DNA of 64,000 nt from Eubacteriales bacterium (GCA_045659245.1 JAZOWN010000006.1:13186-77185), one strand, 5' to 3'. Positions 6,627 to 48,402 are shown, counted from the first letter of the stretch. Numbers and translations: made by a program. Notes: generated by a model from the letters alone, not told the origin.

Positions 6627-6709
6627 TCACGCTGACAGAGCTTTATGCTGATTATAAATTTTAATTTCGAGATGTCGCTGATATTTTTATGCCGTTTCGG
6701 GAAAAATAA

Positions 6710-6735: not shown

Positions 6736-6747
6736 GCTTTTCGGACG

Positions 6748-7875: not shown

Positions 7876-9213
7876 TCAAATATTCAGAATTTTCGTTGCA
7901 ATATTGAAATAAATGATAAGCGACACCGCATCGACTATCGTGGTAATAAACGGGCTTGCCATTACCGCAGGGTCGAGCTTTACTCGCTTAGCAAGAATGG
8001 GCAGAGAAGCGCCCACGAGCTTTGCAAGCACTATGGTTGCGAGAAGTGAGAGAGAAACAGTAAGCGCAATACCCACCGAAACTCTGTCAAATATCATTAC
8101 CTTGGCAAATGCCGCAACAGCAAGCACTGTGCCGCAGAGCATGGATACGCGGAACTCCTTCCAAAGTATCTTGAAAATATTGCTCATGCGAACTTCTCCA
8201 AGGGAAAGGCTTCTTATTATCGTTACCGATGCTTGCCCGCCTGCGTTTCCGCCCGATCCCATGAGCATTGGAATAAAGGCTGTTAGCACTACCACCTTGC
8301 CGAGCGCTTCCTCGTAATAAGTGATGATAGAGCCCGTGAATGCGGCGGATATCATGAGTATCAAAAGCCACGGCACGCGCTTTAGAAAGGTTTCAAAAAC
8401 TCCTATCTTAAGATACGGCTTATCCGATGGTACGATTGCCACCATTTTTTCAATATCCTCGGTTGCTTCCTGACTTATGACGTCAAGTGCGTCGTCAACC
8501 GTTACGATGCCCACAAGTCTGTTCTCGCTGTCAACGACGGGCAGGGCAAGCAGGTCGGATTTTGAAATAAGATTTGCAACCGTTTCCTTATCGTCAGATG
8601 TCGTGGTGCTGATAACGGCGGTGTACATAATGTCCTCTATGAGGTCTGTTTTTTTTGCAAAAAGAAGGTCGCGAAGCTCTACCCAGCCAAGGAGTCGTCT
8701 TGATGCGTCCGTTACGTATATAACGTAAACGGTTTCCTTGTCAATACCCGTTTTGCGTATATGTTCTACGGCTTCTTCTACAGTAAGATTACTTTTTATT
8801 CTTACAAATTCCGAGGTCATAACGCTTCCCGCGCTTTGGTCGGAATATTTCAAAAACTTGTTTATCTCCCTGCGTTGCTCCGCCGAGGAGCTTTTTAGTA
8901 TACGGGCTACGACGTTTGCGGGAAGCTCCTCAAGCATATCGACCGTATCGTCCATAGCGAGCGTATCAATAAATGCGGAGATTTCGGTGTCCTTCATAGA
9001 ATCTATGATTTGCTCTTGCACCTCTGCGTCAAGCTCGGCAAAAACGTCCGCCGCAATATCCTTTTTTAACATTCTGAAAACCTTAGGAAGAGATTGTCCG
9101 TCAAGTGATTGCAAAAAATCCGCAACGTCAACTGCATTCATTTCGTTTACAGCGCTTATGAACTGATTGTATTTTTTCTCGTTCAAAAGCTCGTGAAGCT
9201 CGGTGTAGGTCAT
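7876..9213 (-). CDS. mgtE: magnesium transporter MgtE
   Basis: 445-aa protein with an MgtE N-domain, tandem CBS region and C-terminal TM domain. It carries the PFITTIVDA and GNAGGQ motifs. Confidence 0.9.
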   Translation of the reverse strand: MTYTELHELLNEKKYNQFISAVNEMNAVDVADFLQSLDGQSLPKVFRMLKKDIAADVFAELDAEVQEQIIDSMKDTEISAFIDTLAMDDTVDMLEELPANVVARILKSSSAEQRREINKFLKYSDQSAGSVMTSEFVRIKSNLTVEEAVEHIRKTGIDKETVYVIYVTDASRRLLGWVELRDLLFAKKTDLIEDIMYTAVISTTTSDDKETVANLISKSDLLALPVVDSENRLVGIVTVDDALDVISQEATEDIEKMVAIVPSDKPYLKIGVFETFLKRVPWLLILMISAAFTGSIITYYEEALGKVVVLTAFIPMLMGSGGNAGGQASVTIIRSLSLGEVRMSNIFKILWKEFRVSMLCGTVLAVAAFAKVMIFDRVSVGIALTVSLSLLATIVLAKLVGASLPILAKRVKLDPAVMASPFITTIVDAVSLIIYFNIATKILNI

Positions 9214-17541: not shown

Positions 17542-17830
17542 TTGACAAGTGACAAAGCTTGGAGTATTATATTAGCAATGGCTGTGATAAGGACAGGCGA
17601 GGATTTTGAAATTACAGAGAGCCGTTGGTTGGTGTGAAACGGTGTTTCGTTCCTTTTGCTAAATCACCTTTGAGCTCGCTGCCGAAAGCCCCACGGCAAG
17701 TAGAACAGCGCGTATTCCTGCGTTAGAGGAGAGTGTATGATAAGTACACGGTGAGTGGTCGTTTGACAAAAAGAGTGGTACCGCGGAAGCTTTACGCCTT
17801 CGCCTCTTAAGATAGGGGCGAAGGCTTTTT
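17542..17830 (+). promoter_or_regulatory. promoter plus T-box leader (candidate Ile specifier AUC) controlling ilvA-ridA
   Basis: The promoter is TTGACA (17542-17547), 17 nt, then TATTAT (17565-17570). Stem-I reads AGAGAGCCGUUGGUUGGUGUGAAACGG. AUC followed by A lies at 17663-17666. The T-box core AAGAGUGGUACCGCGG is at 17771-17786. The terminator is GCCUUCGCCUCU / AGGGGCGAAGGC plus UUUUU (17796-17830). Confidence 0.85.
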
Positions 17831-19552: not shown

Positions 19553-19880
19553 TTGACAAAATGCGGTTTTTGTGGTAAAATATCCGCAACAAGTTTTTAT
19601 TATAATGTAGGGCTTTGAAGGGAAGCAGTAGTTTGCGATGCATTTTCAGAAAGTCGGCGGGTGATGCGAGCCGATAATGCGAGCTTATGAATCTCATCCC
19701 CGAGCTTCCGCTTGAAGGCAAGGTCTTGTTGCTGCGTAGGTGCGGACGGTGTGTTCCCGTTATCATGAACAACCTCACTAATTGGCGAGGGAAAGTGGCA
19801 TTTATTGCAATAAGAGTGGTACCGCAGAGAGTTTATTAGACCTTTGTCTCTTGAAATTTGAGAGATAAAGGTCTTTTTTG
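19553..19880 (+). promoter_or_regulatory. promoter plus T-box leader (candidate Leu specifier CUC) controlling the ilv-leu operon
   Basis: The promoter is TTGACA (19553-19558), 17 nt, then TAAAAT (19576-19581). Stem-I has AGAAAG..GGGUGAUGCGAG. CUC followed by A lies at 19693-19696, and an overlapping AUC at 19691-19693 makes the specifier ambiguous. The T-box core AAGAGUGGUACCGCAG is at 19812-19827. A 14-bp terminator AGACCUUUGUCUCU / AGAGAUAAAGGUCU plus a U-run spans 19838-19879. Confidence 0.85.
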
Positions 19881-31443: not shown

Positions 31444-31700
31444 AATGCATAATATTCATGCGCGTTTATGCATAATTCGCATAATACAATAAAAACGCCG
31501 TAAAATCAATGCATAAAGCATGAATAATATGCATAGTTGTGCATAATGACAATTTGAGAGCAAAAAAGTTGTGAAAATATCGTTGTTCGGTAGTATTGAC
31601 ATATTCTTCCGAATGGTGTATAATATACAACAGCATATAAAGTATTCATATTATTACTTTATAAATATATTTTGATTGTATTAAATTATGCTTTATGCAT
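31444..31700 (+). promoter_or_regulatory. arg operon control region: consensus promoter flanked by an array of ARG-box-like (ArgR/AhrC-type) repeats
   Basis: The promoter is TTGACA (31596-31601), 17 nt, then TGtATAAT (31619-31624). Repeats are TGCATAATATTCA (31446-31458), TGCATAATTCGCA (31469-31481), ATGCATAAAGCAT (31509-31521), TGAATAATATGCA (31521-31533) and TGCATAATG (31541-31549). An inverted copy of ATGCATAAAGCAT lies at 31688-31700, overlapping the argG RBS region. Confidence 0.6.
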
Positions 31701-31711
31701 GGAGGTACGTT

Positions 31712-32941
31712 ATGGAAAAGAAGGATATCAAAAAGGTCGTTTTGGCGTATTCCGGTGGACTCGATACGTCTATCATTATTCCGTGGCTTAAGGAGAACTA
31801 CAATAACTGTGAGGTTATCGCCGTAAGCGGAAACGTAGGTCAGAGCGACGAGCTCGACGGACTTGAGGAAAAGGCTATCAAGACCGGCGCATCGAAAATA
31901 TACATTGAGGATCTTACTAACGAATTCGTTGACGAATACGTTATTCCTACCGTTATGGCAGGAGCTAAGTATGAGGAATATATGCTCGGTACGTCATTCG
32001 CACGTCCCGTTATCGCAAAGCGTATAGTTGAGATCGCTAAGGCAGAGGGCGCTGACGCTATTTGCCACGGTTGTACAGGTAAGGGAAACGACCAGGTTCG
32101 TTTCGAGCTTACCATTAAGGCTTTTGCTCCCGATATGCCTATCATCGCTCCTTGGCGTGAGTGGGATATCAAATCCCGTGAGGAAGAAATCGAGTACGCA
32201 GAGGCACACAACGTACCGCTTAAGATAAACCGTGAGACCAACTATTCCAAGGATAAGAACCTCTGGCATCTCAGCCACGAGGGACTTGATCTTGAGGACG
32301 CAGGCAACGAGCCTCTTTACGAGAAAGAGGGCTTCCTTGAAATGGGTGTTTCTCCCATTCCCGCTCCCGACGCTCCTACCTATATCACTCTTGATTTCGA
32401 GCAGGGCCGTCCCGTTGCATTCAACGGTGAGAAGATGAGCGCAAAGGATATTATCCTCAACCTCAACAAGGTTGGCGGCGAGAACGGTATCGGACTTCTT
32501 GACATCGTTGAGAACCGTCTTGTCGGCATGAAGTGCCGCGGTGTTTACGAGACTCCCGGCGGAGCTATTCTCTATGCCGCACACGACTATCTTGAAACTC
32601 TTTGCCTTGACAAGTACACCGCTCACAAGAAGCAGGAGCTTGCTGTAACCTTTGCAGATCTCGTATATAACGGCCAGTGGTTCACACCTCTTCGTGAGGC
32701 TCTTTCCGCATTCGTTGATAAGACTCAGGAGAAGGTTACCGGTAAGGTAAAGCTCAAGCTCTACAAGGGTAATATTATCAAGGCGGGCGCATGGAGTGAC
32801 TATTCTCTCTACTCCGAGGAGATCGCAACCTTTGGTGAGGATCACGTTTACGACCAGACCGACGCTACCGGATTTATCAACCTCTTTGGACTTCCGATAA
32901 AGGTTCAGGCTCAGGTAAACGAAAAGAACAATAATAAGTAA
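31712..32941 (+). CDS. argG: argininosuccinate synthase
   Basis: The start is the ATG at 31712, after a GGAGG RBS. The N-terminus reads [18 protein letters not shown] and TPGG motifs are present. Confidence 0.95.
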
Positions 32942-33001
32942 TCAAGGAGCATTTTGCCTGGCGTCAATTTTTGGCGGCGGGCAAAACGTGTATAAAAAGA
33001 C

Positions 33002-34378
33002 ATGGAAAAAATGTGGGCAGGAAGGTTTTCAAAGGCGCTTGACAGCAAGGCTGACGATTTCAATTCCTCGATAAGATTTGACTGCAAAATGTATAAGCAG
33101 GACATAACGGGCTCTCTGGCGCATGCAAAAATGCTTGCAAAGCAGGGGATAATTTCCGCGGACGACTGCGAGAAAATAACCGACGGACTTTTGTCTATAC
33201 TTGAGGACCTCGAGAGCGGTGCACTTGAGTTCGACATGGCGTGTGAGGACATTCACATGTTCGTTGAGGCGGAGCTGACGAAGCGTATAGGCGACGCGGG
33301 AAAAAGACTTCATACCGCGAGAAGCCGCAACGATCAGGTAGCGCTTGATATTCGTATGTATCTGCGTGAGGAGTCGGAAAAGGTGATAAGCCTGCTTTCC
33401 GAGCTTGTCGAGGTCATAACCGATAAGGCGGAGGAGAATAAGGCGGTTATCGTTCCGGGATATACGCATCTGCAAAGAGCGCAGCCGATCACATTCGGTC
33501 ATCACCTTATGGCGTACTCGATGATGTTCCTGCGGGATATTTCAAGAGTTCGCGATGCGATCGCGAGAATGAATTATTCGCCTATCGGAAGCTGTGCGCT
33601 TGCAGGTACGACCTACAACACGGACAGACGCTTCGAGGCAGAGGCACTCGGATTTGACGGAATAACGATGAATAGCATAGACGGTGTGTCCGACAGAGAT
33701 TTTTGCGTAGAGCTTATGAGCGCGTACTCGCTTATCATGATGCACCTTTCAAGATTTTCCGAGGAAATTATACTTTGGTCGAGCTGGGAATTCAGATACG
33801 TTGAGCTTGACGACTCCTATACCACGGGCTCGTCTATAATGCCCCAAAAGAAAAATTCTGACATGGCAGAGCTTGTAAGAGGAAAAACGGGCAGAGTTTA
33901 CGGAAATCTTCTGGCTCTGTTGACGACTCTTAAAGGACTTCCGCTCGCTTATAACAAGGACATGCAGGAGGACAAGGAAGCGATTTTCGATTCCCTTGAA
34001 ACCGTGCAGATGTGCCTTGAAATATTCGCACCTATGGTAAAGACCATGAGAGTTAAGGCTGACAATATGTACCGTGCTGCCGAGGAAGGCTTTATAAATG
34101 CGACTGACCTTGCGGATTATCTGACGAAGAAGGGAATGCCTTTTAGATCTGCATACAAGATTGTCGGTCAGATAGTCGCTGAATGCATTGATAAGAAATG
34201 CGTTCTCGATGATCTTTCCTTGGAAGCATACCGTGCTCACAGCGATATGTTCGAGGCAGATCTCTACGGGGAAATTTCACTTGAAGCTTGCGTAAGTAAG
34301 AGAATTTCAGAGGGCGGAACGTCCGTTTCGTCAGTGGAGACGCAGATAGCATACGCAAGAGAGGAACTGAAAAAATGA
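33002..34378 (+). CDS. argH: argininosuccinate lyase
   Basis: The N-terminus is MWAGRFS. Other blocks are PGYTHLQRAQP and the fumarase/lyase signature GSSIMPQKKN. Confidence 0.95.
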   Translation: MEKMWAGRFSKALDSKADDFNSSIRFDCKMYKQDITGSLAHAKMLAKQGIISADDCEKITDGLLSILEDLESGALEFDMACEDIHMFVEAELTKRIGDAGKRLHTARSRNDQVALDIRMYLREESEKVISLLSELVEVITDKAEENKAVIVPGYTHLQRAQPITFGHHLMAYSMMFLRDISRVRDAIARMNYSPIGSCALAGTTYNTDRRFEAEALGFDGITMNSIDGVSDRDFCVELMSAYSLIMMHLSRFSEEIILWSSWEFRYVELDDSYTTGSSIMPQKKNSDMAELVRGKTGRVYGNLLALLTTLKGLPLAYNKDMQEDKEAIFDSLETVQMCLEIFAPMVKTMRVKADNMYRAAEEGFINATDLADYLTKKGMPFRSAYKIVGQIVAECIDKKCVLDDLSLEAYRAHSDMFEADLYGEISLEACVSKRISEGGTSVSSVETQIAYAREELKK

Positions 34379-35307
34379 AAAAGGTTTTTATTGACGGCAA
34401 GGCGGGAACTACGGGACTTCGTATCTATGAAAGACTTGCCGACCGAGACGACGTTTGCTTGATCTTGCTCTCCGACGAGGAAAGAAAGAACGCCGATGCG
34501 AGAAAAAAAGCACTTAACGAGTGCGATATAGCGTTTCTTTGTTTGCCCGACGATGCGGCACGCGAGGCTGTTTCGATGGTTGAAAACCCCGACGTCGTTA
34601 TTATCGACGCATCGACTGCACACAGAACGGCTGACGGTTGGAGCTACGGTTTCCCCGAGCTTTCGGCAGAGGCGAGAGAGAATATAAAAAATTCAAAGCG
34701 TATTGCAAACCCCGGTTGTCACGCAAGCGGATTTGTCGCTCTTGTTTATCCCCTCGTAGAGGCGAGTATCCTTAAGCCCGACGTTCTCTTGTCCTGCCAC
34801 TCGATCACGGGTTACAGCGGCGGCGGAAAAAAGATGATTGCCGACTACGACTCCGAGGAGCGCGACGTGCTTCTCGACTATCCGAGACAGTACGGTATCT
34901 CTCAAAAGCATAAGCACCTGCCCGAGATGAAGCACGTTACGGGGATTGTGAACGAACCGGTATTTTCACCTATCGTATCCGACTTTTACAGCGGAATGGA
35001 GGTTACCGTGCCGCTCTTTAAAAAGCAGCTCGCAGACGGATTTACCGTCGAGGACATCAAGCGAGTTTATAGAGAGAAGTATAATACCTCTATCGTAAAA
35101 TACGTTGAGAGCGCTGACAGAGAAGGCTTTTTGTCAGCAGGTGAGCTTGCGGGCAAGGACACTATGAGCGTATCCGTTTACGGAAACGACGACAGAATTA
35201 TTTTGGTTGCGCTTTACGACAATCTCGGCAAGGGTGCGTCGGGTGCGGCAGTTGAATGTATGAATATAGTCCTTGGAGAAGCTCCGGAAAAAGGACTTGT
35301 AATTTGA
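34375..35307 (+). CDS. argC: N-acetyl-gamma-glutamyl-phosphate reductase (short, type-2 form)
   Basis: 310-aa protein with the catalytic-Cys block IANPGCHASG. Its start overlaps the argH stop (ATGA). Confidence 0.88.
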   Translation: MKKVFIDGKAGTTGLRIYERLADRDDVCLILLSDEERKNADARKKALNECDIAFLCLPDDAAREAVSMVENPDVVIIDASTAHRTADGWSYGFPELSAEARENIKNSKRIANPGCHASGFVALVYPLVEASILKPDVLLSCHSITGYSGGGKKMIADYDSEERDVLLDYPRQYGISQKHKHLPEMKHVTGIVNEPVFSPIVSDFYSGMEVTVPLFKKQLADGFTVEDIKRVYREKYNTSIVKYVESADREGFLSAGELAGKDTMSVSVYGNDDRIILVALYDNLGKGASGAAVECMNIVLGEAPEKGLVI

Positions 35308-35317
35308 GGAAACAGAA

Positions 35318-36529
35318 ATGAAGCAGATTAACGGCGGCGTTTGTGCCGCAAAGGGATTTACCGCAAACGGCATAAGATGCGGTATAAGAAAGAACAGAAC
35401 TAAGAGAGATATTGCGCTTATTTCCAGTGAGGTGCCCGGTGCTGCTGCGGCAGTTTACACCAAGAACCTCGTAAAGGGCGCACCTCTTACCGTAACCAAG
35501 GAAAATATTTCCGACGGAATAGCGCAAGCAATGATTTGTAACAGCGGAAACGCTAACACCTGCAACGCAAACGGAATTGAGATCGCTACAAAGACTTGTG
35601 AGCTTCTCGCAAAGGAAATGAATATCCGCGCAAACGACGTAATAGTTGCATCTACGGGTGTTATCGGACAGCCTCTTGATATTGCTCCCATCGCGGGCGG
35701 TATGAAGGAGCTTGTAGCAGGACTTGGCGACCATTGCGATTTGGCTTGCGAGGGCATTATGACGACGGACGTAAAGAAGAAGGAGATCGCGATGTCCTTC
35801 GAGATCGGCGGAGTTGAGTGCAGAATGGGCGGTATTGCAAAGGGAAGCGGAATGATCCACCCCAACATGGCTACCATGCTCGTGTTCGTTACTACGGACT
35901 GCGCTATCAGCGCGGACATGCTCAAGCTTGCGCTCTCCCGCGACGTAGTTGATTCCTTTAACATGATAAGCGTTGACGGAGATACCTCCACTAACGATAT
36001 GGTTTCGGTTATCGCAAACGGAATGGCGGGAAATACCCTCATTTCCGAGGAAAACGCTGATTTTGAGAAATTCTGCGAGGCACTCCACGCAGTTACCTCA
36101 CATCTTTGCCGTGCTATCGCGGCTGACGGAGAGGGGGCTACCAAGCTTCTTGAATGTGTTGTCGAGGGCGCTAAGGACAAGGACAACGCGAGAGTTGTTG
36201 CGAAATCCGTTATATGCTCATCGCTCTTTAAGGCGGCTATGTTCGGTGCTGATGCTAACTGGGGACGCGTGCTTTGCGCTATCGGATACAGCGGAGCTGA
36301 CGTTGACGTAAACAAGGTGAGCGTGACGTTCAAGTCCGTAGGCGGTGAGATCACCGTGTGCCAAAACGGCGCAGGTGTTGAATTCTCCGAGGAGCTTGCT
36401 AAAAAGATACTCGTTGAGAGTGAGATACAGATACTTATAGGTCTTGGCGACGGTGACGGACAGGCAGTAGCCTGGGGCTGTGACCTCACCTACGACTACG
36501 TAAAGATCAACGGAGATTACAGAACTTAA
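35318..36529 (+). CDS. argJ: bifunctional ornithine acetyltransferase / N-acetylglutamate synthase
   Basis: It carries the autoprocessing-site block GMIHPNMATMLVFVTTD and the C-terminal DLTYDYVKINGDYRT. Confidence 0.93.
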   Translation: MKQINGGVCAAKGFTANGIRCGIRKNRTKRDIALISSEVPGAAAAVYTKNLVKGAPLTVTKENISDGIAQAMICNSGNANTCNANGIEIATKTCELLAKEMNIRANDVIVASTGVIGQPLDIAPIAGGMKELVAGLGDHCDLACEGIMTTDVKKKEIAMSFEIGGVECRMGGIAKGSGMIHPNMATMLVFVTTDCAISADMLKLALSRDVVDSFNMISVDGDTSTNDMVSVIANGMAGNTLISEENADFEKFCEALHAVTSHLCRAIAADGEGATKLLECVVEGAKDKDNARVVAKSVICSSLFKAAMFGADANWGRVLCAIGYSGADVDVNKVSVTFKSVGGEITVCQNGAGVEFSEELAKKILVESEIQILIGLGDGDGQAVAWGCDLTYDYVKINGDYRT

Positions 36530-36543
36530 TTTGGAGATTGAAA

Positions 36544-37416
36544 ATGGAAATTAACAACATGCAAAGAGTGGAGGTCATTACCGAGGCGCTCCCGTACATA
36601 AAAAAATATTACAACAAAATAATTGTGGTAAAGTACGGCGGAAACGCTATGATAAACGAGGAGCTTAAAGAGGCAGTTATGGGAGATCTCGTACTGCTCG
36701 CGCTTATCGGTATCAAGGTCGTGCTCGTTCACGGCGGAGGACCTGAAATTACCGAAATGCTTGCAAAGGTAGGTAAAAAGACGGAGTTTCTCAATGGCTT
36801 GCGCGTTACCGATAAGGAAACGGTTGAGATCGTTCAGATGGTGCTTGCGGGCAAGATCAATAAGAATCTTGTAAATACTATCCAGAACAAGGGCGGCAAG
36901 GCGATAGGTCTTTGCGGTGTTGACGGACACATGATAAAGGCTACCCGAATCAACGAACAGCTTGGCTACGTCGGAGAGGTTACCGACGTCAACGTTGAGC
37001 CTATACTTGACGTTCTCGATAAGGGCTATATTCCCGTAATATCCACCATAGGGTGTGATAACGAGGGGAATACCTACAACATAAATGCCGATACTGCGGC
37101 GGCGCGCATTGCGGGCGAGCTTAAAGCGGAGTGCCTTATATCCATGACGGATATCGAGGGTATTCTCAGAGATAAGAACGATCCCTCAACGCTTATTTCG
37201 AAGATATGCGTGAGTGATGCGCCTCAGCTTATGAAGGAGGGCATTATCAGCGGTGGTATGATACCTAAGGTCAACTGCTGCATCGAGTCAATAAGACGAG
37301 GAGTTAATAAGGTATTTATAATCGACGGACGTGTTCCGCACTCCATTCTTATTGAAACACTTACTGACAAAGGTATGGGAACGATGTTCGTTTCCGGTAA
37401 AAAATATCCTAAATAA
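36544..37416 (+). CDS. argB: acetylglutamate kinase
   Basis: Blocks present are VVKYGGNAM, VLVHGGGP and YNINADTAA. The ATG at 36544 lies 7 nt after GGAG; the track uses TTG 36538. Confidence 0.92.
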   Translation: MEINNMQRVEVITEALPYIKKYYNKIIVVKYGGNAMINEELKEAVMGDLVLLALIGIKVVLVHGGGPEITEMLAKVGKKTEFLNGLRVTDKETVEIVQMVLAGKINKNLVNTIQNKGGKAIGLCGVDGHMIKATRINEQLGYVGEVTDVNVEPILDVLDKGYIPVISTIGCDNEGNTYNINADTAAARIAGELKAECLISMTDIEGILRDKNDPSTLISKICVSDAPQLMKEGIISGGMIPKVNCCIESIRRGVNKVFIIDGRVPHSILIETLTDKGMGTMFVSGKKYPK

Positions 37417-37432
37417 TTTTGCGGTGTAATTT

Positions 37433-38596
37433 ATGAATATAAAAGAACTTGACAACAATTACGTTGCGTCAACGTATGCGAGGTTTCCCATTTGTATAAC
37501 GAGCGGCAAGGGCTCGATCGTGTACGACGATGAGGGAAAGGAATATATCGACCTCGGTACGGGAATTGCCGTAAATACATTCGGAGTTGCTGACGACGAG
37601 TGGGTATCGGCAGTTACGGCGCAGCTTTCTGCCGTACAGCATACCTCTAATCTCTATTACAGCGAGCCCTGTGCGCGCCTTGCGGCAGAGCTTTGCGAAA
37701 GAACGGGAATGAAAAGAGTGTTCTTTTCAAACTCGGGCGCTGAAGCAAACGAGTGCGCCATAAAGGCGGCAAGAAAATACGGAGAGCTAAACAAGGGCGA
37801 GGGATATACTACCATCGTAACCCTAAAGGACAGTTTCCACGGACGTACACTAACTACGCTTGCGGCAACGGGACAGGACGTCTTTCATAAGGACTTTTTG
37901 CCTCTTACCGAGGGCTTTGTGCACGCGGCGGCAAACTCCAAGGAGGACGTTGTCAGACTGACGAGCGAAAACAAGTGCTGTGCGGTCATGTTTGAGGTCG
38001 TTCAGGGAGAGGGCGGAGTGCTCCCCCTTAAAGCAGAATTTCTAACGTGGCTTGAGGGCTTTGCAAAGGAAAACGGACTGCTTCTTATTGCCGACGAGGT
38101 TCAGACGGGTAACGGACGAACGGGTGAGCTTTACGGATATATGAATTTCGGTATCAAGCCCGACATCGTTTCTACCGCGAAGGGACTTGGCGGAGGCTTG
38201 CCGATAGGTGCTACAATGCTCGGAGAGAAGGTAGAGGGCGTTCTCGGTGCGGGAATGCACGGATCTACGTTCGGCGGAAACCCCGTATGCTCGGCAGGCG
38301 CTTTGAATATACTTTCAAGACTTGACGGAGAGCTTCTCCAAGGAGTAAAGCGCAAGAGCGAGTACATTTTCAGAGAGCTTGAGGGCGCAAAGGGAGTAAA
38401 GAGCGTTACGGGACTCGGTCTTATGATCGGTATTGAATGTGAACGCCCTGCTTCGGAAATAATAGAAGAATGTAGGGAAAAGGGAGTTCTTGTTATCAAG
38501 GCAAAGCATAAGATACGACTTTTGCCCGCACTTAATATAGACGATGAAATTTTAACAAAAGCAATAAATATTTTGAAGGAGGCGTGTGCTAAATGA
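37433..38596 (+). CDS. argD: acetylornithine aminotransferase
   Basis: It is a class-III aminotransferase with SGAEANE, DEVQTGNGRTG and the PLP-Lys region STAKGLGGG. Confidence 0.9.
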   Translation: MNIKELDNNYVASTYARFPICITSGKGSIVYDDEGKEYIDLGTGIAVNTFGVADDEWVSAVTAQLSAVQHTSNLYYSEPCARLAAELCERTGMKRVFFSNSGAEANECAIKAARKYGELNKGEGYTTIVTLKDSFHGRTLTTLAATGQDVFHKDFLPLTEGFVHAAANSKEDVVRLTSENKCCAVMFEVVQGEGGVLPLKAEFLTWLEGFAKENGLLLIADEVQTGNGRTGELYGYMNFGIKPDIVSTAKGLGGGLPIGATMLGEKVEGVLGAGMHGSTFGGNPVCSAGALNILSRLDGELLQGVKRKSEYIFRELEGAKGVKSVTGLGLMIGIECERPASEIIEECREKGVLVIKAKHKIRLLPALNIDDEILTKAINILKEACAK

Positions 38597-39495
38597 AACA
38601 CCTGTTAAAGCTTATGGATCTTACCGAGAGGGAGATAATAGAAATTCTCAATACGGCAGATCAGCTCAAATACGAAAAGAAAAACGGAATCAAGCATCAT
38701 ATCCTTGCGGGAAAGACGCTCGGAATGATCTTTGAGAAATCCTCTACGAGAACGAGAGTATCGTTCGAGGTCGGAATGTACGACCTTGGAGGTACGGCAC
38801 TCTTCTTGAGCTCACGCGACCTTCAGATCGGACGCGGCGAGCCCGTTCAGGATACCGCGCGCGTTCTTTCGAGATACCTCGACGGAATTATGATCCGTAC
38901 CTTCGATCAGGAGGAGGTCGAGTCTCTTGCTCGCTGCGGTACTATTCCGATAATCAACGGTCTTACGGACTATTGCCACCCCTGCCAGGTGCTTGCCGAT
39001 CTTATGACGATCAGAGAGCATAAGGGCTGTATAAAGGGTAATAAGCTCTGCTATATCGGTGACGGAAATAACATGACAAACTCCCTCATAGTCGGCGGAA
39101 TCAAGATGGGAATGAGCGTATCGGTCGCTTGCCCCAAGGGATACGAGCCTGATGCGGAGATCATGAGATGGGCGTCCGTTAACGGAGAATTCACCTGCAC
39201 AGACAACGTTTTTGAGGCGGCTAAGGATGCCGACGTGCTCTACACCGACGTTTGGGCTTCCATGGGCCAGGAGGGTGAGGCGGCAGAAAGAAAGAAGATC
39301 TTTGCCGGCTACCAGATAAACAGCGACGTTATGGCTGTGGCTCATAGCGATGCAATGGTCCTTCACTGCCTGCCTGCTCACCGCGGCGAGGAGATCACGG
39401 ATGAAATTATTGAGGCACATGCCGCTGAAATATTTGACGAAGCAGAGAACCGCCTGCACGCGCAGAAGGCAGTTCTTGTAAAATGTCTTGCGTAA
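38593..39495 (+). CDS. argF: ornithine carbamoyltransferase
   Basis: Blocks present are SSTRTRVSFE, HPCQ, DVWASMG and HCLPAHRGEE. Its start overlaps the argD stop. Confidence 0.92.
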   Translation: MKHLLKLMDLTEREIIEILNTADQLKYEKKNGIKHHILAGKTLGMIFEKSSTRTRVSFEVGMYDLGGTALFLSSRDLQIGRGEPVQDTARVLSRYLDGIMIRTFDQEEVESLARCGTIPIINGLTDYCHPCQVLADLMTIREHKGCIKGNKLCYIGDGNNMTNSLIVGGIKMGMSVSVACPKGYEPDAEIMRWASVNGEFTCTDNVFEAAKDADVLYTDVWASMGQEGEAAERKKIFAGYQINSDVMAVAHSDAMVLHCLPAHRGEEITDEIIEAHAAEIFDEAENRLHAQKAVLVKCLA

Positions 39496-39504
39496 GAGGT
39501 GCAT

Positions 39505-40560
39505 ATGAAGAAAGTATATTTGGTTACAGAGGACGGACACAGCTTTGAGGGCTATGCCTTCGGAGCGCAAGCAGAGGTTACGGGCGAGCTTGTGTTCAAC
39601 ACGGGAATGGTTGGTTATATCGAGACTCTCACCGATGCGGCTTATTACGGACAGATAGTAGTCGAGACGTTTCCTCTTGTAGGAAACTACGGCATTATCC
39701 CCTCGGACTTTGAGGGCAAGTGCGCCGTAAAGGGACTTATCGTTCGCGAGTGGTGCGATGCTCCCTCGAACTTCAGATGCGAATACGACCTTGACAAATA
39801 CCTCAAGGACAACGGTATCCCCGGAATTTACGGAATTGATACCAGAGCTATCACCAAGCACATCAGAGAAAACGGCGTAATGAACGCGAAGATCTGCTAT
39901 GAGCTTCCTTACGATCTTGACGAGATCAAGGCTTATAAGATAACAGACGCAGTAGCGGCTGTAAGCACAGAGGAGAAGAAGTCCTTTGACGCTGAGAACG
40001 CAAAATATAACGTGACCGTCGTTGATTACGGCATCAACAAGAGCTTTGTTGACGAGCTTATTAAGCGCGGCTGTAACGTAACCGTAGTTCCTGCTAATAC
40101 ATCTGCCGAGGAGATCCTTGCAGGCAAGCCCGACGGAATTCTTCTTTCGGGCGGACCCGGAAACCCCGCAGATTGTGAGTCGTATGTTGCTGAGGTTAAA
40201 AAGCTTATGGGTAAAGCTCCCATGTTCGGTATCGGACTTGGTCACCAGCTCATGGCTCTTGCAATGGGCGCTACCACCTACAAGCTCAAATACGGTCACC
40301 GCGGAGGCAATCAGCCCTCGCACAAGGTGAACAGCAACCGTACTTATATAACCTCGCAGAACTGCGGTTATGCGGTTGATTCTGACAGCGTAAAGGTTGG
40401 ATGCGTATCGTTTGTAAACGCAAACGATAACACCTGCGAAGGAATTGAATATGCAGACATGAAGGCGTTCTCGGTACAGTTTTATCCCGAGTCTATCGCA
40501 GGACTTCATAGCACCTCATTTCTTTATGACAACTTTATCGATATGATGGGAGGTAATTGA
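39505..40560 (+). CDS. carA: carbamoyl-phosphate synthase small (glutaminase) subunit
   Basis: The triad region is GIGLGHQL (in canonical CarA the Cys nucleophile is GICLGHQ; here Gly-Leu occupies that position and this was not checked further). The GATase fold is present. The ATG at 39505 lies 5 nt after the AAGAGG RBS; the track uses GTG 39499. Confidence 0.85.
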   Translation: MKKVYLVTEDGHSFEGYAFGAQAEVTGELVFNTGMVGYIETLTDAAYYGQIVVETFPLVGNYGIIPSDFEGKCAVKGLIVREWCDAPSNFRCEYDLDKYLKDNGIPGIYGIDTRAITKHIRENGVMNAKICYELPYDLDEIKAYKITDAVAAVSTEEKKSFDAENAKYNVTVVDYGINKSFVDELIKRGCNVTVVPANTSAEEILAGKPDGILLSGGPGNPADCESYVAEVKKLMGKAPMFGIGLGHQLMALAMGATTYKLKYGHRGGNQPSHKVNSNRTYITSQNCGYAVDSDSVKVGCVSFVNANDNTCEGIEYADMKAFSVQFYPESIAGLHSTSFLYDNFIDMMGGN

Positions 40561-40561
40561 T

Positions 40562-43500
40562 ATGCCGCTTAATAAGGACATAAAAAAGGTTTTGGTTATT
40601 GGTTCCGGTCCTATCGTTATCGGACAGGCAGCGGAGTTCGACTATGCGGGCGCGCAGGCATGCCGCGTTCTTAAGGACGCAGGCGTAAACGTCGTTCTCG
40701 TAAACTCCAACCCCGCAACTATAATGACGGACAACGCGCTTGCGGACGAGATCTATCTTGAGCCTCTTACTGCGGAGACTGTAAAGAGAATTATCGAAAA
40801 GGAAAAGCCCGACAGCCTTCTTGCAGGACTTGGCGGACAGACCGGACTTACTATTGCGATGCAGCTGTCGCACGACGGATTTTTACAGTCGCACGGCGTA
40901 AGACTTCTCGGAACTGACGCAAAGGCAATTGATAAGGCAGAGGACAGACAGCTCTTCAAGGAGACCATGGAGTCTATCGGCGAGCCTTGTATCCCCTCTG
41001 ATATTGCTAACGACGTAGAGACTGCGGTTGCAATTGCCGACATAATAGGATATCCCATCATTATCCGTCCCGCGTTTACGCTCGGCGGTGCGGGTGGCGG
41101 TGTTGCAAACAACCGCGAGGAGCTCCTCGTCGTTGCACAGACAGGACTTGACGCATCTCCCATTAATCAGGTGCTTGTTGAAAGATATATTTTCGGCTGG
41201 AAGGAGATCGAGTTTGAAACCATGCGTGACGCGGCAGGTAACGCGATCGCCGTTTGTAGCATGGAAAACTTTGACCCCGTTGGAATCCATACGGGTGACT
41301 CCATAGTTGTGGCGCCCGCACTGACTCTTTCCAATAAAGAGTATCAGATGCTCCGTACCGCGTCGCTCAATATCGTAAACGCGCTCGGCATCGTCGGCGG
41401 CTGTAACTGTCAGTTTGCTCTCAATCCCAATAGCTTTGAGTATGCGGTAATCGAGGTAAACCCCAGAGTTTCCCGTTCCTCCGCACTTGCAAGTAAGGCG
41501 AGCGGATATCCTATCGCAAAGATAACCACAAAGGTTGCTCTCGGATATACGCTTGACGAGATTCAGAACGATATTACGGGAAAGACCTGCGCATGCTTCG
41601 AGCCTACGCTCGACTACGTGGTAGTAAAATTCCCCAAGTGGCCATTCGATAAATTCAACGGCTCGAGCAGAAAGCTCGGAACGCAGATGAAGGCAACGGG
41701 CGAGGTAATGTCTATCGGTCCTTCGTTTGAAATGGCTATCATGAAGGCAGTCCGCGGAGCGGAGATCTCTCTTGACACGCTCAACGCGCGTCCTCTTAAC
41801 GATGCGCCCATAGAGGAGCGTCTTGCCGCTATGGACGACCGCAGAATATTTACCGTATTTGAGGCGCTTAAGGAAGGCGTTACTATTGAGAAGATCAATG
41901 AGATAACGAGAATCGACCCGTGGTTCCTCTCAAAGCTCAAAAAGCTTGTTGAATTTGAAAAGGCAATCGAGAACGGCTTGACGGCTGATACCTACAAGCT
42001 CGGTAAGATGCTCGGCTATACGGACAAGTCCTTGGCAAAGCTCAGCGGAGAGGCAAACGTGCCCTCAATGGACGCATCTTATAAGATGGTTGATACCTGT
42101 GCGGCAGAATTTGACGCTCGTACACCCTATTTCTATTCCACCTACGGCGGAGAGTGCGAGGCTCGCGGCTTTAAGAAGAGCGGAAAGCCCACCATTCTCG
42201 TTCTCGGCTCAGGTCCTATAAGAATAGGACAGGGAATTGAGTTCGACTATTCCTCCGTTCACTGCGTATGGGCGCTCAAGGAGCTTGGATATGACGTTGT
42301 TATCGTAAACAACAACCCCGAAACCGTTTCTACGGACTACGATACCGCTGACAGACTGTACTTTGAGCCTCTTACTCCCGAGGACGTTATGAACATTATC
42401 AAGGTTGAAAAGCCTATCGGTGTCGTTGTTGCATTCGGCGGACAGACGGCGATCAAGCTCACTCAGTTCCTGGACGATAACGGAATCGAGATACTCGGAA
42501 CGTCTGCCGAGGGAATCGATATGGCAGAGGACAGAGAAAAGTTCGATGCGCTCCTTGAAAGATTTAATATCCGCAGACCTGTCGGAACGAGCATTATGAC
42601 TACCGAGGAGGCGCTTAAGGCAGCAGAGCAGATAGGATACCCCGTTCTGCTTCGTCCCTCTTACGTTATCGGCGGACAGAATATGTCTATCGTTTATAAC
42701 GCAAGAGAGGTTGAGACCTATATGACCCGTATTCTTTCTACGGGCATTGAGAACCCCGTTCTGGTCGATAAATATATGATGGGAACAGAGCTTGAGGTCG
42801 ACGTAATTTCCGACGGTAAGGACGTTCTTATCCCCGGTATTATGCAGCACGTTGAGCGTGCGGGAGTTCACAGCGGTGACTCTATCGCGGTTTACCCGCC
42901 TTTCAGCGTAAACGATAAGCTTCTTAATACTCTCGTTGAATCTTCCGAAAAGCTCGCGCTTTCTCTTGGAACTAAGGGACTTGTAAATATTCAGTACCTC
43001 ATCTACCGTAACGAGCTTTACGTTATCGAGGTTAACCCCCGCGCTTCGAGAACCATACCTTATATAAGTAAGGTAACGGGCGTGCCTATGGTTGACCTTG
43101 CTACCAAGGTAATGCTCGGCGCACCTCTTGCTTCTCTCGGCTACGGCACGGGACTTTACAAGACACCTCCTTACTATGCAGTAAAGGTGCCCGTATTCTC
43201 CTTCCAAAAGCTGACGGACGCTAACTCCTACCTCGGACCGGAAATGAAGTCTACGGGTGAGGTTCTCGGACTTGGAAAGAACCTTAACGAGGCTATATTC
43301 AAGGGACTTACCTCGGCAGGATTTTCGCTTAAGGCGCCCAGTGCAGGCTCTGACGTCGGCGTGTTTATAAGCGTTGGCGAGCATGACCTTCGCGAGATCG
43401 TAACGCTCGCAAAGAAGCTTAGCGACCTTGGAATGAAGATATATGCAACCAAGCAGACCGCAGAGGCTATCGAGGGACTCGGAATTTCCGTTGTTTCCAT

Positions 43501-44593
43501 CGGTGCCGTTGGCGAGACCAACGATGCATACGAGCTGATCGAGAGCGGAAAGATAAGCTATATCGTTTATACGGGAACTCTCTTTGACACCTCGCTTAAC
43601 GAGTTTATAGCGCTTCACAGAAAGGCGCTTCAGCACTCCGTTGCGTGCCTTACCTCGCTTGATACCGCGAATGCTCTTGCAGATATTATCGCAAGCCGCT
43701 ATAATCAGCAGAACACCGAGCTTGTTGACATCAACAATATGCGTACACAGCCTATGCTTATTAAGTTCTCCAAGATGCAGGGAACGGGCGACGACTATAT
43801 CTTCATAAACAATATGGACGAAAGCATAACCTGTCCCGAATCCTTGAGCCTTACCATGTGTGATAGACACTACGGAGTAGGCGCTGACGGACTTGTTCTT
43901 ATAGAGAAATCCGACGTTGCCGATGCGCGCATGAGGATCTTCAACCGCGACGGTAGTGAGGGTGTAATGGCGGGTAACTCCATTCGTTGCGTAGGAAAGT
44001 ATCTGTACGATAACAAGATCGTCAACAAGGATAGAATAAACATCGAAACGAGAAGCGGTATAAGAGATCTTCGCCTTTACACAAGAAACGGCAAGGTTAC
44101 TACCGTAAGCGTTGGAATGGGCAAGGCAAGCGTTCTTCTTAAGGACATTCCCACCACCATTGACGCAGAGCGCGCTGTAAATTATCCCTTGACGGTTGGT
44201 GGCAAGGAATATAACGTAACGCTCGTGTCCATGGGTAACCCCCACTGCGTAGTATTTACCGACTACGTTGTCGGTGTTGACGTTAAGGGCATAGGACGGC
44301 TCTTCGAGAATGCTCCCGAATTCCCCGAAAGAATTAATACCGAATTTATTCGCGTAGTAAACCCGAACACCATAAAGATGCGAGTTTACGAGCGCGGAAA
44401 CGGAGAAACTCCTGCCTGCGGAACAGGTGCGTGCGCGGCTGTTGTTGCGGCTGTCGAAAACGGCTTCTGCAAGAAGGGCGAGGACGTTACCGTTAAGCTT
44501 CGCGGCGGTGACCTTATCGTAAATTACACTGACGAAAAGGTAATTCTTATCGGAAACGCAGAACTTGTATATCAGGGATATATGGAAGACTGA
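40562..44593 (+). CDS. carB: carbamoyl-phosphate synthase large subunit fused in frame to diaminopimelate epimerase (CarB::DapF, 1343 aa)
   Basis: Residues 1-1064 are a full CarB with two ATP-grasp halves and an MGS-like tail. Residues 1065-1343 (nt 43754-44590) are a full DapF. The DapF part has FSKMQGTGDDYIF, the first catalytic Cys in AGNSIRCVGKY and the second in ETPACGTGACA. No stop codon and no Shine-Dalgarno sequence lie at the junction (..aacaatatgcgtacacagcctATGctt..). Confidence 0.85.
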   Translation: MPLNKDIKKVLVIGSGPIVIGQAAEFDYAGAQACRVLKDAGVNVVLVNSNPATIMTDNALADEIYLEPLTAETVKRIIEKEKPDSLLAGLGGQTGLTIAMQLSHDGFLQSHGVRLLGTDAKAIDKAEDRQLFKETMESIGEPCIPSDIANDVETAVAIADIIGYPIIIRPAFTLGGAGGGVANNREELLVVAQTGLDASPINQVLVERYIFGWKEIEFETMRDAAGNAIAVCSMENFDPVGIHTGDSIVVAPALTLSNKEYQMLRTASLNIVNALGIVGGCNCQFALNPNSFEYAVIEVNPRVSRSSALASKASGYPIAKITTKVALGYTLDEIQNDITGKTCACFEPTLDYVVVKFPKWPFDKFNGSSRKLGTQMKATGEVMSIGPSFEMAIMKAVRGAEISLDTLNARPLNDAPIEERLAAMDDRRIFTVFEALKEGVTIEKINEITRIDPWFLSKLKKLVEFEKAIENGLTADTYKLGKMLGYTDKSLAKLSGEANVPSMDASYKMVDTCAAEFDARTPYFYSTYGGECEARGFKKSGKPTILVLGSGPIRIGQGIEFDYSSVHCVWALKELGYDVVIVNNNPETVSTDYDTADRLYFEPLTPEDVMNIIKVEKPIGVVVAFGGQTAIKLTQFLDDNGIEILGTSAEGIDMAEDREKFDALLERFNIRRPVGTSIMTTEEALKAAEQIGYPVLLRPSYVIGGQNMSIVYNAREVETYMTRILSTGIENPVLVDKYMMGTELEVDVISDGKDVLIPGIMQHVERAGVHSGDSIAVYPPFSVNDKLLNTLVESSEKLALSLGTKGLVNIQYLIYRNELYVIEVNPRASRTIPYISKVTGVPMVDLATKVMLGAPLASLGYGTGLYKTPPYYAVKVPVFSFQKLTDANSYLGPEMKSTGEVLGLGKNLNEAIFKGLTSAGFSLKAPSAGSDVGVFISVGEHDLREIVTLAKKLSDLGMKIYATKQTAEAIEGLGISVVSIGAVGETNDAYELIESGKISYIVYTGTLFDTSLNEFIALHRKALQHSVACLTSLDTANALADIIASRYNQQNTELVDINNMRTQPMLIKFSKMQGTGDDYIFINNMDESITCPESLSLTMCDRHYGVGADGLVLIEKSDVADARMRIFNRDGSEGVMAGNSIRCVGKYLYDNKIVNKDRINIETRSGIRDLRLYTRNGKVTTVSVGMGKASVLLKDIPTTIDAERAVNYPLTVGGKEYNVTLVSMGNPHCVVFTDYVVGVDVKGIGRLFENAPEFPERINTEFIRVVNPNTIKMRVYERGNGETPACGTGACAAVVAAVENGFCKKGEDVTVKLRGGDLIVNYTDEKVILIGNAELVYQGYMED

Positions 44594-44656
44594 TTTTTCA
44601 TAATATTGTTGACTACGAATAAATAAACTTACTATACAAGTGAATAAATTTATGCA

Positions 44657-44689
44657 AAATGCCGTATTTCTTGGAATACGGCATTTTTG
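44657..44689 (+). terminator. intrinsic terminator of the arg-car operon
   Basis: An 11-bp stem AATGCCGTATT (44658-44668) / AATACGGCATT (44675-44685) is followed by a T-run. Confidence 0.8.
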
Positions 44690-44691
44690 TA

Positions 44692-44982
44692 TTGACAAAA
44701 AAATCGTTTTGGAGTATAATTTTCTCGTAAACCTATGATTAAGAATAGTAGTTAAAGTTATTGATTTTCAGAGAGCCAACGGTGGTGTGAGTTTTGGTAT
44801 TCAATCTTTAGTGAATGGACTTATGAGGGCGGCCGAAAGAGATTTTTTGAGTAGTAACCGACGGAACCGGATCCGTTACAGTTCGGAGTTGCTGAGTGGC
44901 AACGCACAGAGTGGGCGCACGTCGCCAATCACGGGTGGTACCGCAGGTTTTCCTGTCCCTGAACGTAGGGGCAGATTTTTTG
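44692..44982 (+). promoter_or_regulatory. promoter plus T-box leader with Trp specifier (UGG) controlling trpB
   Basis: The promoter is TTGACA (44692-44697), 17 nt, then TATAAT (44715-44720). Stem-I reads AGAGAGCCAACGGUGGUGUGAG. GAA-UGG-A places UGG at 44816-44818. The T-box core GGGUGGUACCGCAG is at 44933-44946. The terminator is CUGUCCCU/AGGGGCAG plus a U-run (44953-44981). Confidence 0.88.
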
Positions 44983-45088: not shown

Positions 45089-46321
45089 ATGAATAAATAC
45101 AGAGATTTTGATAACTATTTTAAGGAATTTCCGAATGAAAAGGGTTATTTTGGCGAGTACGGAGGTTCGTTTTTGCCGCCTGAGCTTATCCCCGCATTCG
45201 AGGAAGCAAAGAACTCATACGAGGCAATTTGTCAGTCCGCACAGTTTATAAACGAGCTTAGACGCATTCGTAAGGATTTTCAGGGCAGACCTACCCCTGT
45301 ATATCACTGCGAAAGACTGTCAAAGCTTTTCGGAAATTGCCAGATATATTTGAAGCGCGAGGACCTCAACCACACGGGTGCACACAAGCTTAACCACTGC
45401 ATGGGTGAGGGCTTGCTTGCAAAGTACATGGGCAAGAAGAAGCTCATTGCCGAAACGGGCGCAGGACAGCACGGAGTTGCTCTTGCGACGGCTGCCGCAT
45501 ACTTTGGTATGGAATGTGATATTTACATGGGTGAGGTTGATATTGAAAAGCAGAAGCCCAACGTAATTCGTATGAAGATGCTTGGTGCTAACGTAATTCC
45601 CGTTACCCACGGACTCAAGACGCTTAAAGAAGCGGTTGACGCGGCATTTGAGGCATATATGAATGAGTACGACGATGCTATCTACTGTATCGGTTCAGCG
45701 CTTGGACCACATCCGTTCCCCATGATGGTAAGAGATTTTCAGGCGGTTATCGGACACGAGGCAAGAGATCAGTTCCTTGAAATGACGGGACATTTTCCCG
45801 ATGCTATCACGGCGTGCGTCGGCGGTGGCTCTAACTCGCTCGGTATGTTCACACCTTTCCTTGCAGATCCCGTTGAGATCTACGGTATAGAGCCTCTCGG
45901 AAGAGGATCTAACGTAGGTGACCACGCGGCTACCATGCAGTTTGGTACAAAGGGAAGACTCCACGGCTTTGAGAGCTATCTGCTTCAGGACGAAAACGGC
46001 GAGCCGTTGCCCGTTTACTCTATCGCGAGCGGACTTGACTATCCCGGTGTAGGACCTGAGCACGCGCATCTGCGTGACCTCGGCAGAGTACACTATGAAA
46101 CCGCAAGCGACGAGGAAGCGATGGAAGCATTCTTCCTGCTTTGCCGCTACGAGGGAATTATCCCCGCTATTGAAAGCTCGCATGCGCTCGCATACGCTAT
46201 AAGATACGCTAAGGAGCATAAATCCGGCTCTATCCTTTGCTGTCTGTCCGGCAGAGGCGATAAGGATATCGACTACGTATACGAAAACTACGGCTGCGGC
46301 GAGAAGTTTTTCAATAAGTAA
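45089..46321 (+). CDS. trpB: tryptophan synthase beta chain (TrpB1-like), stand-alone with no trpA or other trp genes adjacent
   Basis: Blocks present are [14 protein letters not shown], the PLP-Lys motif [23 protein letters not shown] and GGGSNS. Confidence 0.9.
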
Positions 46322-46366: not shown

Positions 46367-46580
46367 ATGCTATAATGTGAGCGTATGTCAGGGGTGTACG
46401 CAGTACTTAATAAGGAATTCGGTGAAAATCCGAAACGAGCGTGTCGCCGTATGCAAAAACAGGTGCGAAAGCAAGCTCGCCGCAGAGCTTGTTATCCATT
46501 GGACTTTTGTCTGAGAAGGTTTTTTGCGACCTTGCGCGAAAGCGCATTTTGCTAAGTCGGAAGACTTGCCCCGTAAGCTT
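46348..46580 (+). promoter_or_regulatory. promoter plus cobalamin (B12) riboswitch
   Basis: The promoter is TTGACT (46348-46353), 17 nt, then TGcTATAAT (46371-46376). The aptamer core reads AAUAAGGAAUUCGGUGAAAAUCCGAAACGAGCG..CGCC, followed by CCAUUGG..CUGAGAAGG. The B12-box-like AAGUCGGAAGACUUGCC lies at 46554-46570. Confidence 0.8.
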
Positions 46581-46656
46581 TTTACCGCACGGACCGGATC
46601 GATAAAAACGATGAAAGCTTGGTATGCGAGAAAAATAAAATTTTAGGAGAATTAAA

Positions 46657-47648: not shown

Positions 47649-47721
47649 AGGTATGTTGAATAATTACAAACAAAAGCCGTGTTTTGCCCCAAAAATTTAT
47701 TGTCGAATAAAGATAATTTTA

Positions 47722-47896
47722 TTGACTTTACGGTTACTATGTGGTATAATATATTCGTTAAGGGCTGTGTGCCTTTTTATGGCTTTTTGTGACCGACGGA
47801 TAAGTAGAAAAAACTACATGGGAGCAGGAAGTAATATAGCCGACCGTCTGGGCAGTCCTTTACCTTTGGGTAGGACTGCCCATATTTATTTTTTTG
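47722..47896 (+). promoter_or_regulatory. promoter plus ZTP (pfl-motif) riboswitch with terminator expression platform, upstream of the pur operon
   Basis: The promoter is TTGACT (47722-47727), 17 nt, then TGgTATAAT (47745-47750). The 5' subdomain is UGUGACCGACGGAUAAGUAG..CUACAUGGGAGC. After a linker, the 3' subdomain is CCGACCGUCUGGGCAG. The terminator GGGCAGUCCU (47850-47859) / AGGACUGCCC (47872-47881) plus a U-run overlaps the pseudoknot strand. Confidence 0.8.
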
Positions 47897-47907
47897 GAGG
47901 AAATCAA

Positions 47908-48402
47908 ATGAAAAAAGTTGGAATTATCATGGGAAGTGACAGTGATCTTCCCGTAGTAGAGAAGGCGATCAATACGCTTAAGGAATACGGCGTGCCTTTT
48001 GAGGTGCACGTTTATTCTGCACACAGAACGCCTGTGGAAGCAAAGGAGTTTTCCGCAAGTGCAAGAGAGAAGGGCTTTGGCGCTTTGATCGCGGCAGCAG
48101 GAATGGCGGCTCACCTTGCGGGAGCAGTTGCGGCAAACACCACGCTGCCTGTGATCGGTATACCCGTAAAATCCAAGAACTTTGACGGTATGGACGCGCT
48201 TTTGTCCACCGTTCAGATGCCCACGGGAATTCCCGTGGCGACGGTTGCGGTAGACGGCGCGGCAAATGCGGCTCTGCTCGCAATCCAGATACTTGCAGTA
48301 AGTGACGAAGCGCTTGCAGAGAAGCTTGACGCGGCAAGAGCTGCGGGAGCTAAAAAGGTTCTTGCAAAGAACGCAGAGATAGAAGCAAAATTCAACGTAT
48401 AA
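47908..48402 (+). CDS. purE: 5-(carboxyamino)imidazole ribonucleotide mutase / AIR carboxylase catalytic subunit PurE
   Basis: The ATG at 47908 follows a GGAGG RBS. Blocks present are [18 protein letters not shown] and GMAAHLAG. The 85-codon N-terminal extension in the track ORF covers the riboswitch and is rejected. No purK is adjacent. Confidence 0.92.

Follow-up and report, generated by a model that had tools for sequence, protein, structure and literature searches.

Carbamoyl-phosphate synthase (CPS) is a textbook case of allosteric control, and DapF, the epimerase of diaminopimelate (DAP), is both the textbook example of an epimerase with two catalytic cysteines and a target for antibiotics. 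The two are joined in a stretch of 64,000 nucleotides from Eubacteriales bacterium (GCA_045659245.1 JAZOWN010000006.1:13186-77185; the whole stretch is called the window below), in which the gene for the large CPS subunit, CarB, runs without a stop codon into a module with the DapF fold, and the first of the two catalytic cysteine positions of that module is occupied by alanine. No description of a CarB::DapF fusion or of a Cys-less DapF was found in the searchable literature, and public annotation names full-length copies "carbamoyl-phosphate synthase large subunit" and fragments "diaminopimelate epimerase, partial".

The window protein resembles CarB of the arginine-operon type (Bacillus subtilis carAB) in its full-length match, in the presence of all domains, in having carA immediately upstream and in its place in an arg operon. 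In ordinary CarBs, of which P0242-P0249 are the closest unfused ones, the chain ends after the allosteric domain, whereas the window protein adds a 279-residue DapF-fold module. That module has the fold of known DapFs (TIGR00652; PDB 2otn, 9mro, 1bwz, 4ijz) at 34-42% identity, but it is fused rather than free-standing and no DAP-pathway gene is linked to it in the window, from which dapL (LL-diaminopimelate aminotransferase) is absent. The fold is also shared with single-base enzymes of the DapF/proline-racemase superfamily (trans-3-hydroxy-L-proline dehydratase, PhzF and methylitaconate isomerase), although these are only about 14-16% identical to the module, which is a clear DapF by sequence; in such enzymes the reaction has changed along with the loss or replacement of one catalytic residue of the pair. 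In DAP epimerase, one thiolate removes the α-proton and the other thiol re-protonates from the opposite face (PMC5885031), and a C73A/C217A double mutant of Escherichia coli DapF has no detectable activity (PMC6061791). E. coli DapF also acts non-catalytically as the protein partner and activator of RppH (PMC6061791, PMC4227774, PMC6061855), an instance of the DapF fold working by protein-protein contact; there, however, it is a free, fully active, moonlighting enzyme, whereas the window module is fused and without one catalytic residue.

The fusion ORF (open reading frame; carB::dapF, 40562..44593, + strand) encodes 1343 amino acids (aa) and, as the earlier note on this DNA had it, no stop codon interrupts the junction NNMRTQP-MLIKFSKMQG, in which an ATG lies at 43754. 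The assignment is supported by frame translation, by profile matches to both parts and by full-length homologues. The CarB moiety (aa 1-~1060, 40562..43741) is complete, with two ATP-grasp halves, an oligomerisation domain and a C-terminal MGS-like allosteric domain (aa 945-1031, 43394-43654), represented by PF25596 (twice), PF02786 (twice), PF02787 and PF02142; it matches the CarB equivalog NF003671 over aa 1-1047 at 1440 bits (cut-off 599) and TIGR01369 at 1403 bits (cut-off 1027). The DapF-fold module (aa 1065-1343, 43754..44590) matches TIGR00652 over aa 1067-1341, at about 278-283 bits against a cut-off of 115, and also PF01678. The two parts named in the earlier note, a complete CarB and a DapF-type part, are thus both well above their profile cut-offs. 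No second copy of carB or of dapF was found in the 64-kb window.

The CarB::DapF fusion is genuine and is conserved across many gut Clostridia. When the full-length protein was used as query against database proteins from NCBI, ENA, JGI and Logan assemblies, all 120 of 120 matches were 1333-1346 aa long, with 74-100% identity, 99-100% coverage and a PF01678 domain. When a query spanning the junction was run against the GTDB species representatives, at least 579 stretches were confirmed, of which the best 80 loci were analysed; counts out of 81 below refer to these 80 reference-genome loci plus the window sequence. The frame across the junction is single, stop-free and gapless in all of these 80 loci, and the fusion, which the earlier note had proposed to look for in related genomes, is therefore present in at least 80 GTDB species and in hundreds of database proteins. 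Cultured carriers include Oscillibacter valericigenes An860, O. ruminantium GH1 and Oscillospiraceae CM74B_53B. In an exhaustive search of 50%-identity representatives, the fusion family formed one cluster (P0241, 1349 aa) plus one fragment, and the next match was an ordinary CarB of 1066 aa. A query with only the C-terminal 443 aa returned nothing but fragments of ≤775 aa and missed existing full-length proteins that are 97-100% identical; C-terminal domain queries seem to under-report fusions, matches far into long proteins apparently being missed by the word index.

Contrary to the earlier note, the module does not have both catalytic cysteines. Solved DapFs carry the first of them, Cys73, in the motifs KSCGNGLRC (2otn) and EMCGNGIRC (9mro), and the aligned stretch of the window protein reads VMAGNSIRC: the Cys73-equivalent residue 1137 is Ala (GCG, 43970..43972, + strand), and the Cys of AGNSIRC cited earlier (aa 1143) is a downstream, non-catalytic residue. 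The second catalytic cysteine is present as Cys1286 (TGC, 44417..44419, + strand), the Cys217 equivalent in the motif ACGTG, which is found in all 79 of the sequences that reach this column. Position 73 is occupied by Ala in 47, Gly in 20 and Cys in 14 of the 81 fusions; the 240 closest database proteins have Ala there in 202 cases, Gly in 11, Ser in 1, Arg in 1 and Cys in none, the remaining 25 falling outside the search pattern. The description of the module as a complete, catalytically competent epimerase is not supported, since Cys73 is Ala in the window and Ala or Gly throughout its clade.

The rest of the pocket is retained. Of the DapF pocket set N11, N64, G74, N75, N157, H159, N190, E208 and R209, the window protein lacks only N11, which is replaced by Asp1077 (43790..43792, + strand); this ligand-binding position is Asn in 63 and Asp in 17 of the 81 fusions. 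The residue equivalent to G76 is Ser in the window, and position 76 varies between A, S and C. Only positions 73 and 76 show pocket changes specific to the Cys-less class, referred to as class II below, with N11D as a further change in the subclade of the window. In the 67 class II species, invariance reaches at least 95% at 75 of the 279 module positions, and every remaining pocket residue is among these. The position equivalent to E. coli Tyr268, an aromatic residue of the dimer interface, is occupied by Tyr1337 in the window and always by Tyr or Phe in the fusions. The ratio of DapF-module to CarB divergence, compared at matched CarB identity, is 1.46-1.86 in class II versus 1.35-1.86 in the Cys73-retaining fusions (class I). 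By these sequence measures, the Cys-less module is not decaying, and strong purifying selection still acts on its remaining active-site residues, Cys217 among them. A model of the module superimposes on ligand-bound DapF (9mro_A) with a TM-score of 0.93 and a root mean square deviation of 1.5 Å, indicating a canonical DapF fold. Class II has gained two conserved cysteines, at module positions 27 and 36 on a peripheral helix (model H192-199), which, judging from the known fold, would lie outside the pocket and be unable to replace Cys73. No compensating conserved catalytic residue was found in the class II alignment.

The fusion is ancient and falls into two classes. In a neighbour-joining tree of the CarB moiety, the Cys-less fusions are monophyletic and comprise the window sequence together with those of Oscillibacter, Dysosmobacter, Acutalibacteraceae and Feifaniaceae. 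The Cys73-retaining fusions, from Ruminococcus sp. metagenome-assembled genomes and Clostridium sp. CAG:964, form a separate clade. Within class II, Ala (GCN) and Gly (GGY) have been exchanged several times, and reversion to Cys (TGC) is never seen. Class I fusions (L088-L093 among them) have the same architecture and junction register, a similar length (~1345 aa) and membership of the same 50%-identity cluster, but they keep Cys73 in the motif MCGNG or MCGNA, lie outside arg operons and are followed by dapL. The classes are two clades, and the counts of genomic context therefore rest on few independent events: dapL lies downstream in 14 of the 15 informative class I loci and in 0 of 54 class II loci, and argF lies upstream in 0 of 14 and 38 of 54 loci, respectively. 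In class I, dapL is the next gene, either directly or after pyrG, and its product scores 513 bits against TIGR03542 (cut-off 365). A search with DapL homologues, tried as a route to class II genomes, returned only further class I clusters; these carA-carB::dapF-dapL clusters are abundant and all have the motif MCGNAIRC, with Cys73 kept. Because both catalytic cysteines are kept and dapL adjoins, class I looks like a true bifunctional CPS/DAP epimerase by sequence and context.

An unfused CarB of 1066 aa (P0242; loci L085-L087) groups with the class I fusions in the same tree. Its locus was checked for a separate carB-dapF pair and contains a lone carB with neither carA nor dapF nearby. The grouping points either to a DapF module lost secondarily in this lineage or to fusion having happened twice, independently. 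In four class I loci (L090-L093) a response regulator with an ANTAR domain, often found upstream of this class, is encoded immediately before carA-carB::dapF-dapL, and beyond it L090 and L091 carry genes for glutamine synthetase and glutamate synthase, which hints that the class I cluster is under nitrogen-responsive antitermination control.

The reading favoured here, with a probability of roughly 0.5, is that the module of class II no longer works as the housekeeping epimerase and has been repurposed as a part of CPS that binds a ligand or has a structural role. CarB carries, at its extreme C-terminus and just after the allosteric domain, a DapF-fold module without a translation start of its own; having exchanged the general base Cys73 for Ala or Gly, the module would no longer serve as the DAP epimerase of the cell. 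It would bind DAP or an isosteric ligand beside the CPS allosteric domain and act as a regulatory and/or dimerising element of CPS, while the meso-DAP of the cell wall would come from a second DapF or from Ddh encoded elsewhere in the genome. The module is probably no longer the DAP epimerase of the cell because both faces of the α-carbon have to be served by a thiol during epimerisation. That it has nevertheless kept a function is suggested by the near-invariance of its pocket (N64, G74, N75, H159, N190, E208, R209, C217), by a relative rate of evolution equal to that of class I and by a rigid junction of fixed length. Furthermore, loss of the dapL linkage accompanies loss of Cys73 in the class II loci. 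A more specific proposal is put forward only tentatively: in class II Oscillospirales, the former epimerase may have become an effector-sensing domain that binds DAP, arginine or citrulline and tunes or dimerises the CPS of the arg operon, the bifunctional ancestor surviving as the class I sister clade. Arginine and citrulline are nearly isosteric with DAP, a speculative link between two pathways that the earlier note had called unrelated.

Several points weigh against this repurposing. The strict conservation of Cys217, His159 and Glu208 fits a still-catalytic enzyme better than a pure binding domain, and both the binding of a DAP-like ligand and the loss of epimerase activity are deduced from sequence. 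The predicted TM-score (pTM) of the structural model of the allosteric domain plus module, 0.78, suggests a fixed packing of the domains without proving it. The correlation between class and context comes from few independent events. The cell wall of the class II genus Dysosmobacter contains meso-DAP (PMC13599835), and a search of 1.38 Mb of related loci for another dapF or for ddh found neither, a weak test at ~21 kb per genome.

The best surviving alternative, although unlikely, is that the class II fusion is a true bifunctional enzyme whose module is still a DAP epimerase, the role of Cys73 as proton donor or acceptor being taken over by another residue or by a water molecule in the cavity left by the change to Ala or Gly. 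The meso-DAP of a class II genus (PMC13599835) and the failure to find a second dapF in the 1.38 Mb are what this alternative would predict, and the TIGR00652 score far above cut-off and the invariance of the other catalytic and binding residues, Cys217, His159 and Glu208 included, agree with it. Position 73 tolerates only the very small residues Ala and Gly, which could leave room for a water. However, the canonical mechanism depends on a pair of thiols, one at each face (PMC5885031), and mutation of the active-site cysteines abolishes activity (PMC6061791). No conserved residue that could compensate was found, position 76 being variable (A, S, C) and Cys27 and Cys36 peripheral, and the linkage to dapL is gone in all 54 informative class II loci.

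Ranked behind it, and doubtful as well, is a neo-functionalised one-base enzyme, in which Cys217 alone would catalyse another reaction (elimination, dehydration or isomerisation) on a DAP-like or arginine-pathway substrate. The fold superfamily does include such single-base enzymes (trans-3-hydroxyproline dehydratase, PhzF, methylitaconate isomerase), and the strict retention of Cys217, His159 and Glu208 under purifying selection, pocket changes limited to positions 73 and 76 plus N11D in one subclade, and relocation of the gene into arg operons would all fit. Yet the sequence points to no particular substrate or reaction, apart from these changes the pocket still matches the DAP-binding pocket, and the arg operons here already encode a complete pathway.

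A third alternative, in which DapF is a separate protein, either initiated at ATG 43754 by coupling or internal initiation or released by proteolysis, is highly improbable. In the window, an in-frame ATG (43754-43756) does stand exactly at DapF residue 1, and one database gene call (P0024, 279 aa) begins there, but that call sits on a 1054-bp contig and is thus truncated. Across the junction (NNMRTQP-MLIK, 43733..43765, + strand), the alignment of the 81 sequences has zero gaps and a fixed length, and a stop codon between the two parts occurs in 0 of 81. The ATG column is Met in only 10 of the 81 sequences and mostly Q, R, E, S or T, and any ATG, GTG or TTG within the eight-codon junction is found in 14 sequences and in none of the other 67. 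A Shine-Dalgarno (SD)-like signal together with a start codon occurs at the junction in 2 of 81 sequences by a weak criterion and in 1 of 81 by a strong one, no more often than at random internal carB positions used as a negative control (24/405 and 10/405), whereas true carB starts have an SD-like signal in 66 of 70 (weak) and 46 of 70 (strong). In the window itself, GGGAGG precedes the carB start, whereas no SD-like sequence precedes 43754, the latter as the earlier note had observed. Because the junction Met is not conserved and no SD signal accompanies it, the DapF module is not translated separately, and the view that this is a real polypeptide fusion is supported. Unfused CarBs end 3-6 residues past the VDI(N/T)K motif and the alignment of the DapF part to stand-alone DapF (9mro) starts at residue 1 of the latter, leaving a linker of about 0-4 residues, the quantity that alignment to stand-alone proteins had been proposed to define. 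An AlphaFold2 model of aa 901-1343 (mean predicted local distance difference test score, pLDDT, 90.6) has no disordered linker, with a pLDDT of 76-80 at the junction.

The chance that the fusion is an assembly or sequencing artefact, a stop codon lost or a frameshift between adjacent carB and dapF genes, is negligible: some related contigs do carry carB lesions, but those of L001 and L002 lie elsewhere in carB, away from the junction, and the artefact is refuted by conservation, namely 19 independent database proteins of 1343 aa that are 97-100% identical to the window protein and come from ENA, JGI and NCBI assemblies, and an identical gapless junction in 80 species.

The lesions themselves are an in-frame TAG in L001 (7941-7943), at a conserved Lys codon of carB (YYAV*VPVF), and frameshifts inside carB in L002 (about 7900-8004) and L004 (about 6650-6748); the 639-aa product that results from the frameshift is identical on 17 contigs. 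Either the genes really are becoming pseudogenes in populations or an assembly error recurs. A shorter "MGS+DapF" protein, represented by matches of 449, 501 and 636 aa, was considered and rejected, as these are contig-end fragments or copies with a nonsense codon or frameshift in carB. P0056 (722 aa, 10 cluster members, 11-kb contig) combines the CarA domains PF00988 and PF00117 with MGS and DAP_epimerase domains but is devoid of the ATP-grasp core of CarB; it has arisen either by deletion or as a chimera in assembly.

In the window, the fusion ORF is the last gene of a tightly packed, same-strand operon, argG-H-C-J-B-D-F-carA (31688..40560, + strand), whose genes each have an NCBIfam equivalog or subfamily match above cut-off and together already encode the complete arginine pathway. 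A sigma-70-type promoter, TTGACA-17-TATAAT with 12/12 hexamer matches, precedes the operon (31596..31624, + strand). The small-subunit gene carA (39499-40560, + strand; NCBIfam match) adjoins the fusion upstream, and this partnership is conserved across related loci. The earlier note had placed the ORF in an ArgR-type regulated operon; the operon stands, and ArgR-type control is still putative. The canonical 18-bp ARG box (TNTGAATWWWWATTCANW) was not enriched at ≤3 mismatches (24 matches vs 14.7 expected), with none convincing at the promoter, the ARG core TGMAT-N4-ATKCA is absent from the arg promoter, and a search of the 64-kb window for argR/ahrC, made with an AhrC query sequence, gave no match. 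A 13-bp palindrome, TGMAT-AAT-ATKCA, with a spacer of 3 nt (4 nt in the ARG box), occurs upstream of the arg promoter at 31446-31458 and 31521-31533, and a weaker copy at 31617-31629 overlaps the -10 element. It has 5 matches at ≤1 mismatch (1.15 expected) and may be the operator of some regulator, but since it is also found in tandem (6710-6722 and 6723-6735) before a GT4 glycosyltransferase gene it is not evidently arginine-specific. Arginine-responsive control of the operon remains plausible. The associated puzzle, that DAP epimerase would come under arginine control, is largely resolved: the Cys-retaining class lies beside dapL and only the Cys-less class lies in arg operons, so the module is under an arg promoter only where the catalytic cysteine has been lost.

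Downstream of the fusion, a consensus promoter (44692-44720, + strand) and a T-box leader (44726-44963, + strand) directly before trpB (45089-46321, + strand) mark the boundary of the arg unit, trpB being a separate unit. The window is rich in RNA-based regulation. It contains four T-box leaders, that of trpB included, and one cobalamin riboswitch, at 44726-44963 (+), 46375-46587 (+), 837-1057 (-), 17575-17810 (+) and 19606-19854 (+), the cobalamin riboswitch preceding a DUF4430 gene. A ZTP riboswitch (47779-47860, + strand) lies inside the listed purE ORF (47653-48402), of which the AIRC domain starts only at aa 88, and the actual start codon of purE is probably located past the riboswitch; purE is followed by the rest of a pur operon (purF, purM, purN, IMP cyclohydrolase). 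Two long antisense ORFs, 42209-44698 (-; 829 aa) over carB::dapF and 38812-40509 (-; 565 aa) over argF/carA, lack supporting evidence of their own and in all likelihood merely shadow the sense genes.

A conserved covalent fusion of CPS and DapF spans a major group of gut and rumen Clostridia. Its two classes, class I with two cysteines and dapL as neighbour and class II with one cysteine in an arg operon, offer a natural before-and-after pair for the passage from an enzyme to a pseudo-enzyme or regulator. If the favoured reading is true, a catalytically disabled enzyme would have been recruited as a regulatory module of CPS. Furthermore, metabolic reconstructions in which this gene is counted as a source of DapF activity in class II organisms may be mistaken, which would affect predictions of lysine and meso-DAP synthesis and of auxotrophy in Oscillibacter, Dysosmobacter and their relatives.

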